From: an uncultured Lachnospiraceae bacterium
GTDB taxonomy: Bacteria > Bacillota > Clostridia > Oscillospirales > CAG-272
Assembly (NCBI GenBank): GCA_964638675.1
Contig: CAZXAU010000010.1
Coordinates: forward strand, 8,272-72,271
DNA length: 64,000 nt
Direction: 5' to 3'
Shown: piece by piece, positions 2,337 to 49,208 of the stretch
How the letters are laid out: each line of letters starts with the position of its first letter
Numbering within the stretch: the first letter of the stretch is position 1
The notes under the pieces: generated by a model
Told to the model about the DNA's origin: nothing
Seen by the model: only the letters and a program-made list of their open reading frames with translations
Database searches by the model: none
Position numbers and translations under genes: made by a program

Positions 2337-4250
2337 TTATGCATCAAACAGCTTTGATAGCTCTTCATATTCTTCATAAAGCTCAAGCAGCTTTTCCTCC
2401 GAACTCTCTTTTTCGGAAAAAAGCTCTGTCAGCTTAATGTGATCGCTTGAATTTTCGGATATTTCATTTTCAATATCCGAAAGTCTGCCCTCCAAAGCCG
2501 CTATTTCCTCGGCACATTTTTCATAGCGTCTCTGCTTTTTACGCATTTGAGCACTGTCTTTCTTATTCTTAAGATACTCTTCCTTTGCCGAGCTTTTCTC
2601 TTTTCCGCTGATGTTTGTACCATTGTTGTTTTCTCCTGACGCTTCAATCACTTCGATGTGATGAAGATATTCGGAGTAATTTCCCTCATAGCTCTCGGGG
2701 ATGGCATCTCCAGAGTGAAAAATTATCATTCTTGTTGAGAGCTTTCGCACGAAGTATCTGTCATGGGATACGGCTATAATGGTACCCTTATACTCTGAAA
2801 GTGCCGTTTCAAGAATTTCTCTCGTATTGATGTCAAGGTGATTTGTCGGCTCATCGAGAATCATAAGATTTGATTTTGAAGTGACGAGCTTTGCAAGAGT
2901 AAGTCTTGCCTTCTCGCCGCCGCTAAGATCGCTGACACGCTTGAATACATCGTCGCCCGTAAAATTGAAAAGCGCAAGAGTGTTCCTGATCTGTGTCATT
3001 CCGAGATCGGAAAAGGCATTCCACAGCTCGTCAAGCACGGTATTTGCAGGATTTAAATTCTGATTCTCCTGATCGTAATATCCTACCTTTACATTATATC
3101 CGAACCAGCTCTCGCCCTTATCGGGGTAGGCATATCCGGTTATGATCTTCAGAAGTGTCGATTTACCGCAACCGTTGTCGCCCGTGATCAGAACTCTGTC
3201 CTTTCTTTTTACAAGGTAGTCAAAGCCCCTGAAAAGTGTCTTATCACCGTATGCCTTTGAAAGCCCCCTTATCGTCAGTACATCATTTCCGCTCTCAGAG
3301 CATTCGGGAAATGATATTCTGACATTCTGCGGAAGGTTTTCGGGACGGTCGATCTTTTCCATTCTGTCTATCATCTTCTGCTTGTTGTCAATGATCTTAT
3401 AGTTTCGCTCCTGACTCCATGTCACCTGCTGAGCTATAATTGCCTCGATTCGGGCAATCTCCTTTTGCTGAAGCTCATAGTGCTTTGACTGAATCTCCCT
3501 GTCCTTTCTCTTCTTATCACAAAAAATAGTATAATTTCCGCTGTAAAGCTTTCCTTTTTTGTTTTCTATATCAAGGATTTTATTTGTCACTCTGTCAAGG
3601 AAATATCGGTCGTGAGAGACAACTATTACTGTTTTTCTGTAATTCGAGAGATGATCCTCAAGCCAACGCAGTGAATTCATGTCAAGATGGTTTGTAGGTT
3701 CATCGAGAATAAGTATATCGGGTGATTTATAAAGTATTCTGCAAAGCGATAGTCTTGTCTTCTGTCCGCCAGAAAGTGAGTTGACATTCATCGATAACTG
3801 CTCGGCGTTGAATCCGAGTGAGACAAGAATCCCCTTTGCCCTCGAACGGAACTCAAGTCCTCCGTCCGCAATAAAGCGTTCAAGCTTTTCACTGTATACG
3901 CCTGCGAGCCTTTCATCTCCGTCCTGCAGACGCTTTCTGATATTTTCAAGCTCGGCTTCTCTTGATATAAGATCAGAGCTTATCTCAAGAACTGCGTCTA
4001 TTAGTGTCGCATCAGAATTAAATGAGACATTCTGATCGAGCATCATAACACTTTTGCCGAGCGATGTATAAACCTTTCCAGATGTCGCTTCGAGCCTTCC
4101 CGTAATTATTTTGAGCAGCGAGCTTTTCCCTGCACCGTTTACTCCCACAATCCCGAGCTTATCTCCCTCATTGATGCTGAAGGAGATATTCTCAAGAATA
4201 GTGTCCACACCGTATGAAAGATTTATGTTTTCTACACTTAATGCAATCAT
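2337..4250 (-). CDS. ABC-F family ATPase (two ABC domains, C-terminal coiled-coil, no TM domain)
   Basis: Two Walker A motifs (GVNGAGKSS, GDNGCGKST), two signature motifs (LSGGQKTR, LSGGEKAR) and two Walker B motifs (ILILDEPTNHLD, LMILDEPTNHLD). The tail is lysine/glutamate-rich. The start is set at MIALSVENI. Confidence 0.9.
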   Translation of the reverse strand: MIALSVENINLSYGVDTILENISFSINEGDKLGIVGVNGAGKSSLLKIITGRLEATSGKVYTSLGKSVMMLDQNVSFNSDATLIDAVLEISSDLISREAELENIRKRLQDGDERLAGVYSEKLERFIADGGLEFRSRAKGILVSLGFNAEQLSMNVNSLSGGQKTRLSLCRILYKSPDILILDEPTNHLDMNSLRWLEDHLSNYRKTVIVVSHDRYFLDRVTNKILDIENKKGKLYSGNYTIFCDKKRKDREIQSKHYELQQKEIARIEAIIAQQVTWSQERNYKIIDNKQKMIDRMEKIDRPENLPQNVRISFPECSESGNDVLTIRGLSKAYGDKTLFRGFDYLVKRKDRVLITGDNGCGKSTLLKIITGYAYPDKGESWFGYNVKVGYYDQENQNLNPANTVLDELWNAFSDLGMTQIRNTLALFNFTGDDVFKRVSDLSGGEKARLTLAKLVTSKSNLMILDEPTNHLDINTREILETALSEYKGTIIAVSHDRYFVRKLSTRMIIFHSGDAIPESYEGNYSEYLHHIEVIEASGENNNGTNISGKEKSSAKEEYLKNKKDSAQMRKKQRRYEKCAEEIAALEGRLSDIENEISENSSDHIKLTELFSEKESSEEKLLELYEEYEELSKLFDA

Positions 4251-5206: not shown

Positions 5207-6331
5207 CTATTCCTCTTCGGCAAGCAGGATGTCGGATATAATATAATTTGACATGAGCATACCGGGCGGCGTGAGAGAATATCTGTCGCCGTTTTTCAGG
5301 ACATATCCCGATTTTATATATTTCTGCAATATCTCTTTGCTTTGACTTTTTCTGATGAGCGACTCATCCGCTCCCTTACTAAGGCGAAATGCAAGCATAA
5401 GACTTTCCTCACGTCTGTCACTATCGCTCAATTCTTCTTTTTGCTCAATCATGTCGGAAAAATCTTCAGAGCGTATATAGCCTTCAATATCCCTTTTGTA
5501 TGCATATCTGCAAGAGTTATAATATGAATGTGCCGCAGTTCCGAAAGAGAGATACATACCCTGCTCCCAATATCTCATGTTGTGCCTGCACTCATATCCC
5601 TTTTTACAGAAATTGCTTATCTCATAATGCTCATACGATGCACTTGTAAGTATTTCATCAGTGAGCATGTACATATCTGAAACTGTGTTTTCATCCGGAA
5701 ATCTCAGTTTATCCCGATTCCTGTAAAAAGGTGTTCCCTTTTCAAGCGAGAGCATATAAACCGATATATGCTCGGGAGATAGGTCAAGCAAACTGTCAAG
5801 GGTAGCACGCACAGAGGAAATGCTTTGCTCAGGTATACCGATCATAACATCGACATTGATATTATCAAATTTATTTTGACGGGCAAGCATATAGCTTTCC
5901 CTGAAGCCCTCAAAATTATGTATTCGTCCTAAAATTTTAAGCTCACTATCGTTCGCCGACTGCATACCGAAGCTCAATCGATTGATTCCCGATTCTTTAT
6001 ATATTTTCAGCTTGTTTTCATCTATCGTTGAGGGATTGCACTCGATCGATATTTCACAACCGTCAAGCAGTTCAAAACTGCTTGCGATCTGATACAATAT
6101 TTCCGAAATGTATCCGGCATCAATGCATGACGGTGTACCTCCCCCGAAAAATACCGTATCGATCTTAAGCCTGCCGACCTTCCCGGCAGTCAGCTTTATA
6201 TTTCTCTTGATAGCATCTACATATTTCCTGCAAAGTTCAAGCGACGGGAGTGAATAAAAATCGCAGTATCTGCATTTTTGCAGACAAAACGGGATATGTA
6301 TGTATATCCCGTAAGTATTATCAGCTGTCAA
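5207..6331 (-). CDS. hemW: Radical SAM heme chaperone / coproporphyrinogen-oxidase-like HemW
   Basis: Contains [16 protein letters not shown] (CxxxCxxC) and sits in the conserved position after lepA. The TTG start at 6331 is preferred. The track ATG at 6418 would overlap lepA by 98 nt. Confidence 0.85.
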
Positions 6332-8138
6332 ACTTAAGCACCGCCATGAATGCCTCGGGGGAAACTTCGACCGTTCCGAGCTTACGCATTTTTTTCTTTC
6401 CTTCCTTTTGCTTTTCAAGAAGCTTCTTTTTACGTGTTATGTCTCCTCCGTAGCATTTTGCAAGGACATCCTTGCGAAGTGCCTTAACCGTTTCACGTGC
6501 AATTATTCTTCCGCCTGCCGCCGCCTGTATAGGAATTTCAAACAGCTGTCTCGGAATGTTTTCCTTGAGTTTTTCGCATATTTTTCTCGCCCGTTGATAG
6601 GACTTGTCTGCATGAACGATAAATGACAGTGCGTCAACTATATCCCCGTTTAAAAGTATATCAAGCTTTACAAGCTTGCTTTCCTTATATCCTGTAAAAG
6701 AATAATCAAACGAAGCGTATCCCTTTGAACGGCTCTTAAGGGTATCGAAAAAGTCGTATATTATTTCATTCAGCGGAAGCTCGTAATGCAATTCGACCCT
6801 TGTCTTGTCTATATATTTCATGTCAATAAAAATTCCGCGTCTGTCCTGACAAAGATCCATTATCGAACCGACAAAATCGGTTGGTGTAATAACCGAGGCA
6901 GATACAATAGGCTCATATGATTCGAGAATATCATCGGGTTGCGGATAATCGGCAGGATTGTCGATATATACCGTCTCTCCGCCGCGCTTGGTGAGCTTAT
7001 ATATAACGCTCGGAGCTGTCGTAATAAGGTCGAGATTGAACTCTCTTTCAAGTCTTTCCTGAACTATTTCCATGTGGAGAAGTCCGAGGAAGCCGCAACG
7101 GAATCCGAAGCCGAGAGCAACAGACGTCTCGGGCTCAAATGAAAGTGCCGCATCGTTAAGTCTCAGTTTTTCAAGAGCGTCACGAAGATCGCCGTATTTT
7201 GAGCCGTCAGCCGGGAATATTCCAGAATACACCATCGGAACAGCTTCCTTGAAACCGGGGAGACATTCACTGCAGGATCTGTCTGCATGTGTTACCGTAT
7301 CTCCTACCTTTGTATCGGCAACCGTTTTTATACTTGCCGTAATATAACCGACATCACCTGCATACAAAACACCCGATGATTTGAGCCCGAACGGTTCCAT
7401 TGTTCCGACATCAACAACCTCAAATTCAGCCCCTGTGCTGAACAGCTTTATCCTGTCAAAAGTACGTATCGTCCCGTTCACGACCTTTATATAAACTACA
7501 ACACCGAGATAGGGATCGTAATATGAATCGAATATAAGGCATTGTAATGGGGCGTTTTCATCACCCTCAGGTGACGGAATATCATTAACTATAGATTCGA
7601 GAACCTGCTCAATGTTGATACCGTTTTTCGCTGAAATTTCAGGACATCCCATAGCAGGGATCCCTATAACGTCCTCAATCTCTTCCCTGCATGTCTGCGG
7701 ATCACATGCAGGAAGATCAATTTTATTTATAACAGGCAGTATCTCAAGCCCGTTATCAACTGCGAGATATGCATTTGCAAGCGTCTGAGCCTGAATTCCC
7801 TGTGTGCCGTCAACTATAAGAATTGCACCCTCACAAGCGTAAAGTGAACGTGAAACCTCATAGTTAAAATCGACATGCCCGGGGGTATCTATGAGATTGA
7901 GACGGTATGTTTCGCCGTTTTTGGCGTTATATTCGATTTTTACCGCTCTTGCTTTGATAGTAATTCCTCTCTCACGCTCGAGGTCCATATTGTCAAGAAG
8001 CTGTTCTTCCATGTCCCTTTGTGCAACCGTCTGTGTTTTTTCAAGTAATCGGTCGGCAAGGGTGGATTTTCCGTGATCGATATGTGCTACTATGCAAAAA
8101 TTTCTTGTATGTGATCTTCTGTATTCTGCTTCGGTCAT
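6321..8138 (-). CDS. lepA: Translation elongation factor 4 (LepA)
   Basis: Contains [28 protein letters not shown] and NKIDL, and is full length at 605 aa. Confidence 0.97.
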
Positions 8139-24320: not shown

Positions 24321-27300
24321 ATGCCGGAAAATACCAAAAAAAGCGATAAGCCGGAAAATAACAATGCCGTAAAGAACGATCAGGTCAGGAAACGTAAGCC
24401 CTCTGCTGAAAACAAAAGACAAGCAGCAGTGCAAACTGATCGCATCGAATTGAAAGCTCCCGGGGGTAAACATATAAAAGCAAGTCATAACGGGTATGGG
24501 CGGTCGTCACATACGGTGGCAAAAAACAAGAAAAAAAAGATGTCGACATCATCTTTGGTTCTTATTACAGCCCTGGTCGTCATATCACTGGCAATCGTAG
24601 CAATGGCAATATATTATATCGTCAATACATCCGGAACACCGTCAGGCGTACTCTACAGCTATACCTGCGAGGCAGGCGAGCATGTTTCAGCTTCGGTATA
24701 CGCTCTGTCATCCGAGCACACTGCCAGATTCCCCGATGATCTTGACATTGATTCACTCACACATAAAGTCGGTAATCACAAAATTTCGGTTATTATAGAC
24801 GAGATAACATATGATGTGACCCTGACCGTCAAGGATACGAAAGCTCCGACCGGAAAAGCCCACAATCTTGTATGCATGCTTGGTTCCTCAATCAAAGCAG
24901 GCGAAATGGTAAGTGATATCGATGATGAAACACAGGTCAGTATCTCCTTTAAAAATCCTCCGAACCTTTCGGTTGAGGGACGGCAGAGTGTAAGAATAAA
25001 ACTTACAGATGAGGGTGGAAACACAACATATATCGACGATTGCTTTGTTTTCGTTGCGAGCAGTATGAAGGTCAAATCATGGGAAATGGGAACACCATTC
25101 CCCTCCCCCACCGATCTGTGCAACGGAAAAGCGGATATCATATTCCAAAACGTGAACGATCTTGCCGATATAAAAGTTCCCGGAACATACAGCATTCCGA
25201 TGAGAATTACAGTGTCGGGCGTGTCGGACACATATTATCTGCCGCTTGCATTTGTCGATACAATTGCCCCAAAGGTTACGGTAAAAGAAGGTAATGTATA
25301 CGATATCTCCGATCCGTTCCCTGCTGCTTCAAACTGGATATCAGCGTGCGATGATGCGACAGATGTGAAATTCTACTACGCTTACGATTACTCAATTACA
25401 TCAGCTGATGTTTATTATCTTGATATTATAGCCGAAGACGCCGCAGGAAACAAGACGCCGGTAAGAGTAAAAATCACGGCACTTGACGGAAAAGTTGATA
25501 ATTTTGCGCCGATCATCAACGTTAAAAACGAGATCATTATAAATGTCGGAAGTGAGCTTGTACTTGAAAACTACGTAACAATATACGATGATAAGGACGG
25601 AGACATTCCCCTCAGTGACAGTGAGAGGGTTAAGATAGAATATCCTGCCGATCTCAATCTCTATCTTCCCGGAGAATATACGATAATTATAACTGCAACC
25701 GATTCGAGCAACAGATCGTCTGTCACTCCGGTAACAGTCAAGGTCGTACACAAAGATATATCAAAAGAAACATCGGATGCACTTGCAGATGAGATCATTT
25801 CGTCAGTTATAAAACTGAATATGACGACTGAGCAGAAGATTCAGGCGATATTTGACCGTATCGCAAGAAATGAAAACATGGACTTCACCGGAAAATCGGA
25901 TAAGAGCAATGAAGTATGGCGTGAATTCTACAGCGGATTCACACTTTCTTACGGAGATTCATATACTACTGCCTGCATGATGAAAACACTTCTCGATAAG
26001 CTTGGAATCGACAGCATAATCATCCACAACCTCACTTCAACAACCTATTGGACTCTTGTTGATTACGGTGACGGCTGGTATCATGTCGATCCATTTCTGC
26101 ACAGTTCACCCTGGCTGGTTGACGGTTCATACAAGGACACGTTAAAGCTTACAGATCTTCAGATGTCCCAGTTCAATGAATTCAACAACGAAGCACATCC
26201 GGGAAGCAACAGTTATCTCTTCAATAGCTCCATCTATCCTGCAACCCCGATATATTCCGAAGAAACCGGAGAGTTTATATATCTTCCCTACAGAGTTATC
26301 TATCTGTGTACCGACGGAGGATATATCGAAGGTGAGACCGATCAGAAGGTCAGCCATATGCAAAACTGCTCAACTGTAATTGCACAGCCTCGTTCGGGTT
26401 ACAGATTTGTTTCATGGAGCGACGGTGTAACAACTCCAGAAAGGACCGACATCATCAAATCGAATCTGACTGTGACTGCTCAGTTTGTTGAATCGCAAGG
26501 ACTGTTTAAAACATATGTACTGACATATGAGGCTGGATCAGGTGGAAAAATAAGCGGCGAAGCCTTCCAGACAGTCGATGCCGGATATTACGGAAGCGAA
26601 ATAGTCGCAATTGCTGACAACGGTTATAAGTTTATCGGCTGGAGTGATGGCATAATGACACCGGCAAGAAAAGACCTTGCAAAGAAGGATATGACCTATA
26701 CCGCAAACTTCGCTCCTCTTTCCGGAAATATATATACACTTGAATACAGAGTAACAGACGGCGGACATATAGAAGGTGAAAACTTCCAGGTACTCGATCT
26801 CGGAAAGGGCGGCACTTCGGTCACAGCTGTTCCGGATGAAGGATATGTGTTCAACATGTGGAGCGACGGACTGATGACCCCGACAAGAAAAGATCCTTAC
26901 GGAAGCGATCTTACAGTAACGGCACGCTTTGTAAAGGAAGATTCTGAGCTTCTCGAATTGCAATATAAAGCACAGGAAGGCGGAACGATCGAGGGTCTGT
27001 CCTACCAGAGGATCGAAAGCGGCAGTTACGGAGATACGGTAAGAGCTGTTGCGTCAAGAGGATATTATTTCGTTGCATGGAGTGACGGACTTGCCGAGGT
27101 CGAAAGACGTGACCTTCCGAGCGAAAGCAAAGAGATCTCCGCTATCTTCGCAAAGCTTAATGAATACAGAATTCTGTACATGATTTCGGGAAATGGCGGA
27201 TATATTAACGGAGATTCAACGCAATACATTTATGACGGAGAGTCTACAAGTGAAGTTACCGCTGTTCCGCTCTTCGGATTCATCTTCAAAGGATGGAGTG

Positions 27301-28031
27301 ACGGAGTAGAATCCGCAACAAGAAGCGATTGCCCAACAAATGATTTTGAAGTAACAGCAATATTTGAAGAGCTTCCGAAATACACTATCACATATAAGGC
27401 AACACAGGGCGGCTCAATAAGCGGAAAGACAACGCAGACTGTATACACCGAAAACAAAGGCTCATCTGTCAAAGCTGTACCGGCATCCGGATACAAATTC
27501 GTGTCATGGAGTGACGGTGAGACATCATCCGAAAGATCAGACCTTGTGACAGATGAAGATATCACATTAACGGCGATTTTTGAAAAACTGAATGTATATA
27601 CAGCAAACTACTCAGCCGGCGAACACGGAAAAGTAAGCGGCACACTTAAACAGACGGCTTATGAAGGCGGAACGTTTAAGACCGTAACGGCAATTGCAGA
27701 TGACGGCTTTGAATTTGCATCATGGAGCGACGGAGTCACAACGGCCGAGAGAACAGATGAGGCAAACAGCGATATAAACGTTGAAGCGATATTCGTTGCT
27801 AAAAAGGTATGTACTCTTTATTACAGTGCTTCCACAGGCGGAAAGATCATCGGAAAGAGCACGCAGAACATTCTGATAGGAAACTCTTCAGAGGAGGTTA
27901 CTGCGGTGGCAGAAGAGGGATATGTATTCGCAAGATGGAGCGACGGAGTCACAACACCGACAAGAAGCGATGTTGCAAAGCAGGACACAGTTTTCTATGT
28001 AGCTATTTTTGAGCTCGCTGAGACAAAGTAA
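24321..28031 (+). CDS. Large membrane-anchored surface protein: basic N-tail, one TM helix, Ig-like (DUF5011-type) domains, a transglutaminase-like Cys-protease core, and 8 Listeria-Bacteroides repeats
   Basis: TM helix LVLITALVVISLAIVAMAIYYIV. Motifs DTKAPTG, DTIAPKV and DNFAPII. Core C...H...D pattern (TTACMMKTL...WTLVDYGDGWYHVDPF). Repeats carry GY.F..WSDG. Confidence 0.85.
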   Translation: MPENTKKSDKPENNNAVKNDQVRKRKPSAENKRQAAVQTDRIELKAPGGKHIKASHNGYGRSSHTVAKNKKKKMSTSSLVLITALVVISLAIVAMAIYYIVNTSGTPSGVLYSYTCEAGEHVSASVYALSSEHTARFPDDLDIDSLTHKVGNHKISVIIDEITYDVTLTVKDTKAPTGKAHNLVCMLGSSIKAGEMVSDIDDETQVSISFKNPPNLSVEGRQSVRIKLTDEGGNTTYIDDCFVFVASSMKVKSWEMGTPFPSPTDLCNGKADIIFQNVNDLADIKVPGTYSIPMRITVSGVSDTYYLPLAFVDTIAPKVTVKEGNVYDISDPFPAASNWISACDDATDVKFYYAYDYSITSADVYYLDIIAEDAAGNKTPVRVKITALDGKVDNFAPIINVKNEIIINVGSELVLENYVTIYDDKDGDIPLSDSERVKIEYPADLNLYLPGEYTIIITATDSSNRSSVTPVTVKVVHKDISKETSDALADEIISSVIKLNMTTEQKIQAIFDRIARNENMDFTGKSDKSNEVWREFYSGFTLSYGDSYTTACMMKTLLDKLGIDSIIIHNLTSTTYWTLVDYGDGWYHVDPFLHSSPWLVDGSYKDTLKLTDLQMSQFNEFNNEAHPGSNSYLFNSSIYPATPIYSEETGEFIYLPYRVIYLCTDGGYIEGETDQKVSHMQNCSTVIAQPRSGYRFVSWSDGVTTPERTDIIKSNLTVTAQFVESQGLFKTYVLTYEAGSGGKISGEAFQTVDAGYYGSEIVAIADNGYKFIGWSDGIMTPARKDLAKKDMTYTANFAPLSGNIYTLEYRVTDGGHIEGENFQVLDLGKGGTSVTAVPDEGYVFNMWSDGLMTPTRKDPYGSDLTVTARFVKEDSELLELQYKAQEGGTIEGLSYQRIESGSYGDTVRAVASRGYYFVAWSDGLAEVERRDLPSESKEISAIFAKLNEYRILYMISGNGGYINGDSTQYIYDGESTSEVTAVPLFGFIFKGWSDGVESATRSDCPTNDFEVTAIFEELPKYTITYKATQGGSISGKTTQTVYTENKGSSVKAVPASGYKFVSWSDGETSSERSDLVTDEDITLTAIFEKLNVYTANYSAGEHGKVSGTLKQTAYEGGTFKTVTAIADDGFEFASWSDGVTTAERTDEANSDINVEAIFVAKKVCTLYYSASTGGKIIGKSTQNILIGNSSEEVTAVAEEGYVFARWSDGVTTPTRSDVAKQDTVFYVAIFELAETK
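26289..28028 (+). repeat. Eight tandem coding repeats of about 72 aa (Flg_new / Listeria-Bacteroides repeat type)
   Basis: Each unit follows Y.(I/L).Y...(G)G.I.G...Q.V..G....V.A.P..GY.F..WSDG.....R.D......(L/I).V.A.F. Confidence 0.85.
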
Positions 28032-35786: not shown

Positions 35787-35945
35787 ATCTTTAACTATGG
35801 CTTTCGCATTGCGAAAGCTTCCTTTCTTGCGGAATTGGGGTTGGTTTTGCGGAGCAAGATCGAGCCGATTCTACTCAAATCGGCTCGTTTCAGTGGCGAA
35901 AGCCACAAAACTCTGTTTGAAAGATTTATCTTTCAAACTTATCCA
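35787..35945 (-). promoter_or_regulatory. Conserved structured 5' leader element, copy 1 of 3 (unclassified)
   Basis: Shares the 24-nt palindrome (35915-35938) and both flanking blocks with the copies at 46829-46971 and 49067-49208. It ends at ATG 35786. Confidence 0.6.
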
Positions 35946-35985
35946 CTTGCCTTATTATTCTCGTATAATTATCTCTTGTGATATT

Positions 35986-45319: not shown

Positions 45320-46828
45320 TCAATATTTCAATATTGCTTCAAAATATGCATCCATAAGCTGTCTGTCGGCGTCTGAAAGAAGTCCGTTTTTCAATGCTCT
45401 GCAATATTCATCATAATAAAGTGAAATGACATCGCCGTATTTTACGCTTCCCGAGATCGGGTCATATATCTGTTCGAGCATTTTTCCGGGAATAAGCTCG
45501 CCGCCATCACCGCCGCCGGCAGTATCATCGCCGCCTTCTCCAGGTTTATCTCCCTCACCTTCGCCGGGTTTGTCGCCTTCGCCTTCTCCGGGTTTATCTC
45601 CTTCACCGTCTCCCGGCTTTTCGCCTTCACCTTCACCCTCGCCTGTCTGATTGGCACCGCCAGGCTCCTTCTCGCCGTCCTCGCCCTCCTGGGGCTCACC
45701 TTCGCCTTCTCCCGGCTCGGGCTTTTTTTCGCCTTCGAGCAGTTCATCTTTTGCATCGGAAAGAAGTTTATCAAGCTTTTTCGCTTCATCTTCAAGCTTT
45801 TTCTGATCGTCAAGTGCCTTGTTTATATCTTCTTCGGCTTTATCAAGTGCTTCGTCTGACGGCACTTTATCAAGCTTCTCGGCAAGGTATGCGAGAGCAT
45901 CGTGCAGTTCGTCACCTTCTTTGGTTTCGGACTCGGCAAGCGAATCTCTGATATTGTCTGCAAGCTCCTTTTTCAGATCCGGATCTTCACCCAGCTTGTT
46001 TTTCAGGTCATCTATAGCTTCGCTTACCTTGTTTTTATCGCCTTTACTTATCGCTTCCCCGAGCTTTGAAGTGAGCTCGTGATTCTGAAGCGATTGACCG
46101 ATCTCATCCTTTGTTATGGCATCGTCCATGATCTTATCGATCTCATTCCGTGTATGAGAAATGCTTGATATATTATCGAGCTTTGAATCTGATTTTTTAA
46201 GTTCGCTCTCAAGCTTATCGATCTGATCGTTCAGCTTTTTGTCAAGCTCCTCTTTATTATCAGATTTTTCTACCTCCTTGCGGAGGTCTTCTATAAGATC
46301 TTTTATAACCTCCTGCCTGAAAATTTCTTCTTCTCTGTCTTCGGCATTTGACGGTACATCAAACAGATCATACGGAATGAAAAGAGTGCCGAGTGCAAGT
46401 ATTACGCAAAGCATACAAGAAAGTATTTCTTTTGTTTTTATATGGCTGACAAGAGACCTTCCGGAAAGCTCCTTCATCCGCTTCAGTGTGTCATTTCTCT
46501 GTATGTCTGCCATCTGTGAGGTATCATCCTTATATTCGTACATCGTACCGACACGTTCCTGCATTCCAAGCTCATCGATCCGCCTTGCTATACGTTTTTT
46601 TGTCGGGTAAAAAGCAAGTGCAAACACGACGATCGATGATATGACAAATACAGCTGAACAAAGCAGTACCGTAATCACAGCCGGCAATTCATTACCAACC
46701 AAATGATAAACAAGCGAAAATAATAAAAGAAAGAGAAACGCTGACGAAATTCCGAAAAGAAAGGCACGTATAACTCCTTCTGCTGTCAATCTTATCTTAA
46801 ATTTACGAAATAATTTGCTGTAATCCAT
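45320..46828 (-). CDS. Membrane protein with a long coiled-coil and an acidic GEGEGDKP-repeat region, unknown function
   Basis: Three N-terminal TM helices, a K/E/D-rich coiled-coil region and tandem octapeptide repeats. It is the first gene of the MoxR operon. The start is ATG 46828 (or 46840). Confidence 0.6.
   Translation of the reverse strand: MDYSKLFRKFKIRLTAEGVIRAFLFGISSAFLFLLLFSLVYHLVGNELPAVITVLLCSAVFVISSIVVFALAFYPTKKRIARRIDELGMQERVGTMYEYKDDTSQMADIQRNDTLKRMKELSGRSLVSHIKTKEILSCMLCVILALGTLFIPYDLFDVPSNAEDREEEIFRQEVIKDLIEDLRKEVEKSDNKEELDKKLNDQIDKLESELKKSDSKLDNISSISHTRNEIDKIMDDAITKDEIGQSLQNHELTSKLGEAISKGDKNKVSEAIDDLKNKLGEDPDLKKELADNIRDSLAESETKEGDELHDALAYLAEKLDKVPSDEALDKAEEDINKALDDQKKLEDEAKKLDKLLSDAKDELLEGEKKPEPGEGEGEPQEGEDGEKEPGGANQTGEGEGEGEKPGDGEGDKPGEGEGDKPGEGEGDKPGEGGDDTAGGGDGGELIPGKMLEQIYDPISGSVKYGDVISLYYDEYCRALKNGLLSDADRQLMDAYFEAILKY
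45540..45643 (-). repeat. Imperfect 24-nt tandem repeat, about 4.3 units (coding, GEGEGDKP)
   Basis: Plus-strand units CCRGGYTTDTCBCCYTCRCCKTCK occur at 45540, 45564, 45588 and 45612. Confidence 0.8.
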
Positions 46829-46971
46829 TTTTATAACCATAGCTTTCGCTTTACGAAAGCTTCCTTTCTTTCGGAATTGGGGCTGGTTTTGCGAGGCAAA
46901 ATCGCCGCCGCGACGGTGACGAAAGCCACAAAACGCCGTTTGAAAGATTTATCTTTCAAACTTATCTCCTT
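46829..46971 (-). promoter_or_regulatory. Conserved structured 5' leader element, copy 2 of 3 (unclassified)
   Basis: The palindrome is at 46938-46961. A 55-nt block (46830-46884) is identical to copy 3. Confidence 0.6.
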
Positions 46972-47896: not shown

Positions 47897-49066
47897 TCAT
47901 TCCCCTAGCGACGGTTTAATTATATTATCAATAATAAACTCTGCGGTGGAGTCGATCTCGTTGAACGCTACTGTTTTCGGAAGCGTGACAAAAAATGCAC
48001 TTTTTGTCTTTTCTATAAGCTTATCGGTATATACAATACAGCCGTCCCGGATATCCTCAATTCCGTCCAGAGCTATCGATTCCCTGTTTTTCGCCGACAT
48101 TTGCTCAAGCGTGAAATGGCTTTCATCAATATAAGCCGACATTTTTTCTCCGTCTATTATGACCGGGTATCCGCCTATATTTCCGAATACACCCGGTGAG
48201 TGGATAAGCTCCCTGCTTTCATTATCAAGCGCAGAGAGTATACTCATGATAATATTAAAATTACTCGATGCATTCATCATGTTCCGTTTCTGATCGCTCG
48301 GCATTGCAATAGAGCAGAGACTGAATATCCTTTCCTGATCTATTTGGAGCGTCTTACCGCTATATGATAGATATAAAAGCTGACTTACGCCCTCAGTATG
48401 ACCTTCCTTACTTATCACAACATCATGAAAATGTGAGCTTGCAAGGCTGACCGAGACATTCCAATAATCGGATATGCCGATCTCCTTAGCCACAGCCATT
48501 TTTATACGTGGGATCAAATGATTCAAGTTTCCGCTTCCGAAATCGGGACATGTAAGACCGGCAGATTTTAACCACGGAAGTGTTGCATCCGAATATGATG
48601 TATTTATTACGATAGCATTGCATCCAGATTTTTCGTATGCAAGCATGATATTTCTGATATACCTGACAGACAACGGTGTCCATATTCCGTATGCACGCAG
48701 ATTCTTCCATGATATCGAACCGTATTTCAGTCCTGCATATACACGACTTGTGTTCACAATGATATCGGGCGAGCACCTCTCAAGCAGATCACTGATCGAC
48801 TCAACGCTTTCAAGGTCTGTATTTCCTTCAACAATGACACGGCTGCGGCAGATTCCTCTTATTGTTGCGGCAACAGTTGCGATATTTACATCCTGTTGCA
48901 TCTTTTCGGTATTTCTGCCTGCAACAGTAATTTCAATACGCTCATCACCTACACTCAGCAGATAATCAAGAAGATAATTACCTACACTACCGAGCCCGAG
49001 TATCATTATTTTAATTTTGCCGCACTTCAATTTTTCTTTTATTGCTTTCAGTTTATTCTCAAGCAT
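47897..49066 (-). CDS. NAD(P)-binding Rossmann-fold protein, possibly saccharopine-dehydrogenase-like, unknown function
   Basis: N-terminal KIMILGLGSVGNYLLDYL (GxGxxG). No further family motif recognised. The start is ATG 49066 (or 49078). Confidence 0.55.
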   Translation of the reverse strand: MLENKLKAIKEKLKCGKIKIMILGLGSVGNYLLDYLLSVGDERIEITVAGRNTEKMQQDVNIATVAATIRGICRSRVIVEGNTDLESVESISDLLERCSPDIIVNTSRVYAGLKYGSISWKNLRAYGIWTPLSVRYIRNIMLAYEKSGCNAIVINTSYSDATLPWLKSAGLTCPDFGSGNLNHLIPRIKMAVAKEIGISDYWNVSVSLASSHFHDVVISKEGHTEGVSQLLYLSYSGKTLQIDQERIFSLCSIAMPSDQKRNMMNASSNFNIIMSILSALDNESRELIHSPGVFGNIGGYPVIIDGEKMSAYIDESHFTLEQMSAKNRESIALDGIEDIRDGCIVYTDKLIEKTKSAFFVTLPKTVAFNEIDSTAEFIIDNIIKPSLGE

Positions 49067-49208
49067 GTTTATAACCATAGCTTTCGCTTTACGAAAGCTT
49101 CCTTTCTTTCGGAATTGGGGCTCGATTCTCCTCGAATCGGCTCTTTTCGGTGACGAAAGCCACAAAACGCCGTTTGAAAGATTTATCTTTCAAACTTTAT
49201 CTCCCTCA
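49067..49208 (-). promoter_or_regulatory. Conserved structured leader element, copy 3 of 3 (intra-operonic, unclassified)
   Basis: The palindrome is at 49172-49195. The element begins at the TGA stop (49206-49208) of the upstream gene. Confidence 0.6.

Follow-up and report, generated by a model that had tools for sequence, protein, structure and literature searches.

Three copies of one element in the window

We studied a 64,000-nucleotide (nt) stretch of DNA from an uncultured Lachnospiraceae bacterium (contig CAZXAU010000010.1, positions 8,272 to 72,271 of the forward strand; hereafter the window), in which one non-coding element occurs three times, each time on the minus strand and directly 5' of the start codon of a minus-strand gene. 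Reading the strand confirmed the coordinates given in a preliminary description of this DNA (35787-35945, 46829-46971, and 49067-49208). Copy 1 precedes a gene for a ClpC paralog, copy 2 precedes a MoxR/DUF58/BatA/vWA operon, and copy 3 lies within an operon, between a DUF6564 gene and a saccharopine-dehydrogenase-like gene. Pfam agreed with these gene calls (ClpC-like AAA+; MoxR/DUF58/BatA/vWA operon; DUF6564 followed by the saccharopine-dehydrogenase-like protein); the first gene of the MoxR/DUF58/BatA/vWA operon encodes a 506-amino-acid (aa) protein with no Pfam match.

In gene orientation the parts follow in the order fuzzy native Shine-Dalgarno sequence (SD), AAG, hairpin P1, linker, optional P2 domain, the element's own SD GAAAGGA, optional hairpin P4, spacer AUGGUCAUA-NNN, and AUG. 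The features of the window copies are given below; E-values are those of a covariance model (CM) built from 14 copies of the family; in the window it found only the three known copies.

35787..35946, minus strand: copy 1, whole element with a residual native SD-like GUGGAUAA (CM match at 35807-35949, E 2.6e-10)
35786-35784, minus strand: start ATG of the ClpC-paralog gene, whose 5' untranslated region (5' UTR) holds copy 1
35915..35938, minus strand: copy 1, P1 hairpin, G-UUUGAAAGAU-AA-AUCUUUCAAA-C
35902..35911, minus strand: copy 1, P2 5' strand, GUUUUGUGGC
35862..35886, minus strand: copy 1, center hairpin GAGCCGAUU-N7-AAUCGGCUC, a variable module with a degraded counterpart in copy 3
35831..35841, minus strand: copy 1, P2 3' strand, ACCCCAAUUCC
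35819..35827, minus strand: copy 1, element-borne SD, AGAAAGGAA
35800..35818, minus strand: copy 1, P4 hairpin GCUUUCGC-AAU-GCGAAAGC, between SD and spacer
35787..35799, minus strand: copy 1, conserved spacer CAUAGUUAAAGAU, with the first AUG mutated to AUA (consensus in the family, AUGGUCAUA-NNN)
46829..46971, minus strand: copy 2, whole element with native SD AAGGAG (CM E 6.8e-14)
46828-46826, minus strand: likely start ATG of the first MoxR/DUF58/BatA/vWA operon gene, 3' of copy 2
46938..46961, minus strand: copy 2, P1 hairpin
46925..46934, minus strand: copy 2, P2 5' strand, GUUUUGUGGC
46886..46921, minus strand: copy 2, internal hairpins hpA (CGUCACCG..CGGCGGCG, imperfect) and hpB (AUUUUGC-CUC-GCAAAAC)
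46873..46883, minus strand: copy 2, P2 3' strand, GCCCCAAUUCC
46861-46869, minus strand: copy 2, SD, AGAAAGGAA
46842-46860, minus strand: copy 2, P4
46829-46841, minus strand: copy 2, spacer UAUGGUUAUAAAA
49067..49205, minus strand: copy 3, whole element with native SD GGGAG (CM E 5.5e-13)
49208-49206, minus strand: stop codon of the DUF6564 gene, upstream of the operon-internal copy 3
49066-49064, minus strand: start ATG of the saccharopine-dehydrogenase-like gene, downstream of copy 3
49172..49195, minus strand: copy 3, P1 hairpin
49159-49168, minus strand: copy 3, P2 5' strand
49120-49143, minus strand: copy 3, degraded center hairpin
49111-49121, minus strand: copy 3, P2 3' strand
49099-49107, minus strand: copy 3, SD
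49080-49098, minus strand: copy 3, P4
49067-49079, minus strand: copy 3, spacer UAUGGUUAUAAAC

In the window we counted exactly three occurrences of the 24-mer GTTTGAAAGATAAATCTTTCAAAC and as many of the 29-nt 3' block CCCCAATTCCGMAAGAAAGGAAGCTTTCG, where shuffles predict 0, and a repeat finder lists the copies as families D4/D5. Alignment bore out that copies 2 and 3 share an identical 3' block, that a single A sets their 5' blocks apart, that their centers are unrelated, and that copy 1 holds both center modules. The 24-mer, identical in the three copies, had been taken for a perfect palindrome; it has 11-nt arms around an asymmetric AA center, and its reverse complement differs from it at 2 positions.

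The copies had also been described as ending 0-15 nt before an ATG. The start-codon position holds, but the conserved element reaches the start codon itself: ATGGTTATAAA(A/C) of copies 2 and 3 belongs to the element, and the genes start at the second ATG (46828, 49066). We place the real start at this second AUG because family copies upstream of Ald and trigger factor are followed there by canonical N-termini, and because relatives of the copy-3 gene start MLEEKL, in agreement with MLENKL from the second ATG (49066). Mechanically called open reading frames (ORFs) run into the element, at 47897-49165 (minus strand, from TTG 49165) and 45320-46840 (minus strand, from ATG 46840; MVIKM...), and annotations of carrier genomes likely contain such false N-terminal extensions. 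P0003, a 426-aa homolog, is over-extended upstream for another reason, as no element lies there.

Copy 1 is preceded, ~40 nt away, by a promoter-like TTGATT-16-TATAAT (36013-35986), itself preceded by a terminator (36048-36012), and a perfect TTGACA-17-TATAAT (47137-47109) lies ~140 nt upstream of copy 2. Copy 3 begins 11 nt past the stop codon of the upstream gene. A simple scan calls P1 and the following GUUUUGU terminator-like in all three copies (35915-35938, 46938-46961, and 49172-49195, minus strand). Judged from these letters, termination at P1 seems unlikely, since G-C pairs in the stem number just 3 and 4-5 nt separate it from the U-run.

The element precedes unrelated genes in many Clostridia and in phages

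A pattern scan for P1 (TTTGAAAGATNNATCTTTCAAA) over one genome per species matched at least 109 loci. Among the matches listed, 8 loci were unrelated (Runella, Yersinia, Rahnella, Flagellimonas) and 101 belonged to the family, with at least 105 copies in 50 species-representative assemblies; with the 3 window copies, these form the set of at least 108 copies used for the counts below. Almost all carriers among the matches listed were uncultured Clostridia labeled Oscillospiraceae, Ruminococcus, Acutalibacteraceae, Flemingiibacterium, or Clostridia, from ruminant, horse, termite, and human guts, digesters, and groundwater; a cultured carrier, Acetanaerobacterium elongatum CGMCC 1.5012, was among them. 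Several assemblies gave at least 5-7 matches each. On viral contigs, 8 of 9 P1 matches were the same element, before phage genes. When the CM was searched over 778 kb at a cut-off of E<1e-5, it returned 114 matches, ~15 of them without the exact P1 sequence. Counted over the ~700 kb of flanks around anchored copies, the CM finds ~15 further copies. As a rough estimate, a genome may hold tens of copies.

The copies are not scattered in random orientation. All 108 can be oriented alike relative to a downstream gene. Of the 102 copies that could be assessed, at least 94 have an ORF start 10-329 nt after P1 (median 98 nt); of the eight that the ORF filter missed, most proved gene-adjacent on inspection, the clear exception being the array at locus L084. 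A co-directional ORF ends at most 150 nt upstream in 64 of the 108, so many copies are operon-internal, and such copies lie 1-40 nt past stop codons. The 92 downstream proteins show almost no mutual similarity, ABC ATPase paralogs excepted. By names assigned from N-terminal sequences, they include UvrC, trigger factor (tig), Ald, PlsX, CysS, IleS, DnaB, IspG, Fba, an AccD-like protein, MiaA, RlmH, ABC transporters, and regulators. The earlier suggestion of a leader that ties three transcription units together is not supported in the sense of a specific regulon: across 50 assemblies, and also in phages, the element stands before ~90 genes unrelated to one another.

Scans against Rfam 15 at gathering thresholds returned only two tRNAs for the whole window and only one tmRNA for 15 loci with typical variants; at E<=10, the best matches of the copy 1 region were unrelated small RNAs (18-24 bits against thresholds of 50-120). 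Full-text literature searches by sequence and by concept returned no description of the family. As first described, the element is structured, gene-oriented, and in leader position, and it has no Rfam match.

Typical copies also occurred on contigs binned as non-Clostridia, L005 (Paludibacteraceae) and L015/L126 (Desulfobulbaceae), which are probably mis-binned Clostridia or phage; the L015/L126 sequence is also an IMG/VR viral contig, on which the element precedes a serine-recombinase-like gene. The 22-nt palindrome alone, with the other parts of the element absent, was seen at L028, L076, L091, and L098 (Rahnella, Yersinia) and at L013, L041, and L060 (Runella). In these conserved, unrelated Enterobacterales and Runella intergenic contexts it may be an operator.

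A conserved anatomy with compensated helices

The G-rich, SD-like stretch before P1 is fuzzy and peaks at -11 to -6, and it is followed at -3 to -1 by a conserved AAG (93, 89, and 95 of 107 copies). In 83 of 108 copies the center of P1, read in gene orientation, is AA. A linker of 2-6 nt leads to the P2 5' strand, (G)GUUUUGUGSC, which is followed by UUU and zero to three variable hairpins; the 3' strand reads GSCACAAUUCC or ...AAAACUUCC. Short forms lack the P2 domain, and GAAAGGAAUGGUCAUAnnnAUG follows P1 almost directly. Both GAAAGGA and AUGGUCAUA-NNN-AUG are conserved across the family; as a rule, 3 nt separate the end of the element from the ATG. GAAAGGA is the complement of UCCUUUC, the tail at the 3' end of Firmicutes 16S rRNA. 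Some lineages, including that of the window, carry P4 between SD and end spacer. The SD-to-AUG distance is bimodal, with 33-35 nt in copies that have a P4 of 19-21 nt and 12-13 nt in copies that lack it. The 3' hairpin GCUUUCGY/RCGAAAGC of the preliminary description is this P4; it is real but lineage-specific. Other lineages have other stem sequences, and these covary.

Single-sequence folds of ~60 copies recurrently gave P1 and a long-range P2 closing a three-way junction. A longest-helix test of P2 that allowed G.U pairs was uninformative (mean 8.6 bp versus 7.6 bp in shuffles), because the U/G-rich strand pairs promiscuously. We also counted pairs in a pseudo-alignment in which both P2 strands were anchored on sequence motifs only (UUUUG, CAAWW). 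Here 68.6% of positions paired, compared with 34-50% for slid partners, and the covariation score was 0.167 versus 0.079 in shuffles, 0 of 500 of which reached it; the most variable column contained CG 17, GC 12, UG 4, and UA 3 times. In the CM alignment, 93.7% of cells pair versus 32-56% when slid, with double changes in 14 of 19 pairs, figures biased towards the structure to which that alignment was fitted. RNAalifold on a MAFFT alignment recovered P1, missed P2, and proposed a CCUUU:AAAGG pairing, which is tentative in view of the register shifts in that alignment.

P1 variants, found via the flanking motifs, stay paired through 1-3 compensatory pairs (arms GUCUGAAAAU/AUUUUCAGAC, GUUAGGAACAU/AUGUUCCUAAC, ACCUGAAAAAC/GUUUUUCAGGU, and AUUGGAAAAUUU/AAAUUUUCCAAU). 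Several share a genome with canonical P1, and one assembly has three different stems, two of them in tandem on one contig. Compensatory changes in P1 and P2 give the covariation that had been proposed as a check. The small hairpin GUGGC-UUUC-GYCAC of the preliminary description is probably not the relevant pairing: it competes with P2, and the family keeps the long-range helix GUUUUGUGSC/GSCACAAUUCC. The argument for RNA orientation built on G.U-to-G-C changes depended on that small hairpin and is disfavored with it by the family data.

Orthologous sites with and without the element

Two of the sites could be compared between relatives. The DUF6564-Sacchrp_dh gene pair around copy 3 is syntenic in relatives of 59-69% aa identity, and in six of them the spacer measures 11-86 nt and is free of the element. 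Locus L112 reads 'TAA GGGAGGAACTGAA ATG CTT GAA' where the window reads 'TGA GGGAGATAAAG(127-nt element)ATG CTT GAG'. The empty site shows that the SD-like sequence 5' of P1 is the SD that the gene had originally, not a component of an expression platform, and that the element sits between this SD and the start codon.

The second site is ispG, before which locus L033 has a window-type element. At L131/L132, where the ispG DNA is 97.7% identical and the downstream spacer is conserved, the upstream sequence, '...aagaaaaagaggaaaaacATGagcgca' or, in another excerpt, '...aagaaaaagaggaaaaacATG', contains no element. Relatives at 74% and 64% identity have canonical ribosome-binding sites (RBSs) of 10-13 nt, and in a relative at 82% all that is left of the element is a decayed 3' part (GGAAAGGAAGCTTTCGCTCTGCGGGAG...). 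Empty sites have an ordinary SD 5-8 nt from the ATG. For the other two window copies, the next best match to the ClpC paralog is 41% identical, too distant for an orthologous-site comparison, and the 506-aa gene has a single distant relative in metagenomes, which allows no such comparison. At locus L127 (2271-2609), the 337-nt ispG-polC spacer carries short tandem repeats of the GAAAACCGK type that are unrelated to the element.

The copies also behave as repeats. The variable region is more alike within genomes than between them (identity 0.63 versus 0.51, p=3e-10), tandem or nested copies lie upstream of single genes at L040, L057, and L120, and contigs end inside or next to the element at L030, L033, L080, L085, L017, and L037. 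Locus L040 (minus strand, ~2480-2760 of the reverse complement) has two full tandem elements before an lgt-like gene; their P1 stems differ by compensatory pairs, and the second begins directly after the ...GGUCAUAAA of the first. L057 (4470-4761, minus strand) is a tandem array of ~131-nt units with boundaries inside P1 and repeated partial P1 halves (AGATAAATCTTTCAAAT). Internal mini-repeats expand the centers at L101 (~100-230, a cgattccgctgcgcggaaaaa-like unit ~5 times) and L048 (~2950-3150, gattccag 3 times).

P1+P2 modules with no downstream SD or gene were found at L084 (7342-7834) and L087 (~6150-6440) of the uncultured Ruminococcus metagenome-assembled genome CAZPYK01. They form tandem units of ~235 nt that start with a duplicated tmRNA 3'-end fragment (att-like) and end with a bidirectional terminator-like hairpin, and the L087 array adjoins a bona fide tmRNA gene (6440-6807, minus strand). 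We dismissed a tRNA-like reading of the L084 array: ARAGORN finds nothing there, and the T-arm-like piece is the duplicated tmRNA 3' end.

A probably mobile leader cassette

Taking these observations together, we favor, with moderate confidence, the reading that the three window copies belong to a family of dispersed, orientation-locked, and probably mobile leader/RBS cassettes of Oscillospiraceae-like Clostridia and phages. A copy would insert between a gene's original SD and its start codon and would be co-transcribed with the gene. Directly after the orphaned native SD, P1 would bury a UUG at start-codon distance, so that spurious initiation there is avoided, and the optional P2 multi-helix domain would fold on itself. 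The element's own SD, GAAAGGA, would then drive translation at the second AUG, by which insertion before essential genes could be tolerated. Where P4 is present, its folding would bridge the 33-35-nt gap and regain the SD-AUG geometry of P4-less copies (12-13 nt). This geometry, with SD and AUG far apart and a hairpin filling the gap, is that of a hairpin-bridged split RBS.

Several points weigh against this reading. P1 is near-invariant over 50 assemblies, and P1 and P2 keep their pairing through compensatory changes, which suggests selection on individual copies and is unexpected for a purely selfish, decaying repeat. Orthologous sites were comparable at two places only; at one of them, ispG, the L033 contig ends in P1 and therefore lacks the filled allele's 5' junction, and precise deletion could there stand in for insertion. 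Flanks show no target-site duplication, their 3- and 4-mer matches equaling the shuffled expectation. Judged by eye, the consensus 5' end (AAG-GUUUGAAAG...) is not an inverted copy of the 3' end (...GGAAUGGUCAUA). No transposase, recombinase, or reverse transcriptase was linked to the element, the whole genomes of carriers having been left unscanned. Finally, the predicted accessibility of the SD is only moderately above that of the element body (0.57 versus 0.37).

P1 itself is an internal palindrome, not a terminal one. As regards IS200/IS605-type features, the element has a 5' hairpin with AAG immediately upstream and lacks a target-site duplication; its 3' hairpin is lineage-limited and unlike P1. 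In window copies 2 and 3, ATAA(A) stands at either end; we considered it as a target-site duplication and rejected it, as it is not general in the family.

Alternative explanations

The main rival, which we regard as possible but unlikely, is a global post-transcriptional leader selected by the host. P1, or a competition between P2 and anti-SD:SD pairing, would be read by a protein, a small RNA, or a physical signal; the element-bearing genes would make up one translational regulon, and the element would have spread by recombination because it is useful, with mobility secondary. The near-invariance of P1, whose rare variants keep their pairing, accords with this account, as do the covarying P2 and P4 helices, the fixed position relative to the start codon, and the presence of the element on phage genes. 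So would competition with P2 by the RNAalifold pairing of CCUUU, just 3' of the P2 5' strand, with the SD AAAGG, together with the CUUUCG/GAAAG tracts of window-type copies; the stand-alone tandem modules beside tmRNA-end repeats (L084, L087) could be decoy or sponge RNAs. However, CCUUU:AAAGG comes from the MAFFT alignment, in which SD and P4 arms are mixed, and lineages with other junction sequences lack it. No theme unites the target genes, and few of them turn up again from one genome to the next. Genomes with 97.7% identical flanking DNA differ in having or lacking the element, the P2 domain is dispensable (in short forms P1 leads directly to the SD), and no candidate factor was identified. 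Such a role could coexist with mobility. An enzyme recognizing P1, or copy-paste via the RBS-like ends, combined with one trans-acting factor acting on host and phage carriers, would make a translational regulon built by a transposon, a combination that we hold to be rather doubtful.

The remaining accounts are each contradicted by specific tests on anatomy, coding, genes, and orthologous sites. It is highly improbable that the element is a small upstream ORF or leader peptide (MKDKSFK...) read from the UUG within P1, with translational coupling to the gene in MIRU or bicistronic style. The native SD does lie 6-7 nt upstream of the UUG, its frame is the sole one open through P1, and in 14 copies the ORF ends at a UAA two nt before the main AUG. 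But relative to the main AUG the UUG frame falls in each of the three phases, as read from the table of copies, linker lengths differ by non-multiples of 3, and in window copies 1, 2, and 3 the ORFs stop after 21, 42, and 34 codons, at -84, -2, and -22 nt from the main AUG. No peptide is conserved past the hairpin-encoded residues, and the UUG is buried in a 10-11-bp stem.

We find a metabolite riboswitch scarcely credible, although an aptamer (P2) with an SD-sequestering expression platform would look like what is seen upstream of the SD, a three-way junction whose stems covary and whose junction nucleotides are conserved. Ligand-responsive behavior, one of the options first proposed, does not fit a middle domain that varies from wholly absent in short forms to three helices inside P2, nor an element that is missing at orthologous sites of relatives and polymorphic between near-identical genomes. 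Rfam gave no match even at permissive E-values, the downstream genes are functionally unrelated, and copies are homogenized within each genome.

Equally hard to believe is a double-stranded DNA operator, at which a dimeric transcription factor would bind the 11-2-11 palindrome and repress as a roadblock. In its favor, the symmetric arms are highly conserved, and the same 22-mer, in unrelated occurrences, is conserved in Yersinia/Rahnella and Runella intergenic DNA. Against it stand the asymmetric AA center and the fixed orientation to the gene, and a site that always lies between SD and start codon, often operon-internal a few nt past a stop and far from promoters. Different compensated P1 variants coexist in one genome, G.U pairs occur, and conservation in cis extends to the flanking AAG, GUUUUGUG, and 3' motifs. 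Coding readings, with the element as a small protein or as an N-terminal extension, were rejected because the frame is inconsistent.

Relation to known repeats

By analogy of published descriptions, the closest functional counterpart of the clostridial element is the mycobacterial MIRU. MIRUs (Supply et al. 1997, as summarized in a 2025 review, PMC12548453) appear mobile, 'insert themselves at start codons', and have little impact on expression, and the ORF inside them couples to the gene with a -4 overlap (PMC12548453). Like MIRUs, the element is short, dispersed, intergenic, co-oriented with genes at their start codons, and found in tandem copies; expression would survive its insertion, and it is polymorphic at two sites. 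The two differ in that a MIRU is a coupled ORF, whereas the element brings its own SD at a fixed distance and covarying hairpins and does not conserve a frame, and in their hosts, mycobacteria versus Clostridia and phages.

The element resembles BOX, REP, and the RBS of T4 gene 38 and is a member of none. REP/BIME/REPIN sequences, mobilized by RAYT transposases, mostly lie 3' of genes or where two genes converge; they occur in either orientation and have no RBS. They share with the element a short conserved palindromic hairpin as the core of a genome-wide repeat, with no target-site duplication and, for the element as judged by eye, no classical terminal inverted repeats; the element, in contrast, has one orientation, a position 5' of genes, and an RBS. 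In phage T4 genes 38 and 25, a split RBS is bridged by a hairpin, a feature of single genes. P4-type copies, including all three in the window, would by their geometry do the same, with an SD-AUG distance of 33-35 nt that the hairpin restores to 12-13, but they belong to a dispersed repeat. BOX elements contain a variable number of boxB modules, which the mosaic centers of the window copies recall. To our knowledge, BOX and RUP are not locked to the spacer between SD and start or to one orientation, and RUP has terminal inverted repeats. BOX, RUP, and SPRITE (PMC3049150) are likewise modular, mosaic, foldable intergenic repeats present many times per genome near genes; they show no homology to the element, which is locked to the SD-start spacer in one orientation. 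Synthetic bicistronic designs or RBS insulators (PMC12548453, ref. 78) similarly place an upstream SD before a cassette with a second SD that serves any gene, but the element keeps no in-frame leader ORF and has a folded RNA instead of coupled translation. In marine Beggiatoaceae, abundant intergenic TAACTGA direct-repeat arrays were proposed from genome sequence alone to form a post-transcriptional regulatory network (PMC4679880); they are heptamer direct repeats with no hairpin or multi-helix anatomy, unrelated in sequence and hosts.

If the cassette reading is true, the element is a second, independently evolved answer to the problem that MIRUs face, how a repeat can sit at a start codon without killing the gene, and the answer is a folded RNA module with its own RBS and not a coupled mini-ORF. 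It would raise the mechanistic question of how a DNA element lands within ~3 nt of start codons in one orientation, which is testable thanks to the cultured carrier A. elongatum CGMCC 1.5012, and would offer a natural portable RBS insulator. The element affects the annotation of gene starts and 5' UTRs in Clostridia of gut, rumen, and digester, a large group that is poorly cultured, through false N-terminal extensions (a 422-aa TTG ORF in the window; the MVIK/MVIN start) and assembly breaks inside the element. It is more ordinary than a new riboswitch class, but real, widespread, and unusually precise in its placement.

Elsewhere in the window, at 26400-27980 (plus strand), six to seven diverged direct repeats of ~213-219 nt share a conserved TGGAGYGAYGG core and probably encode a repeat-domain surface protein.

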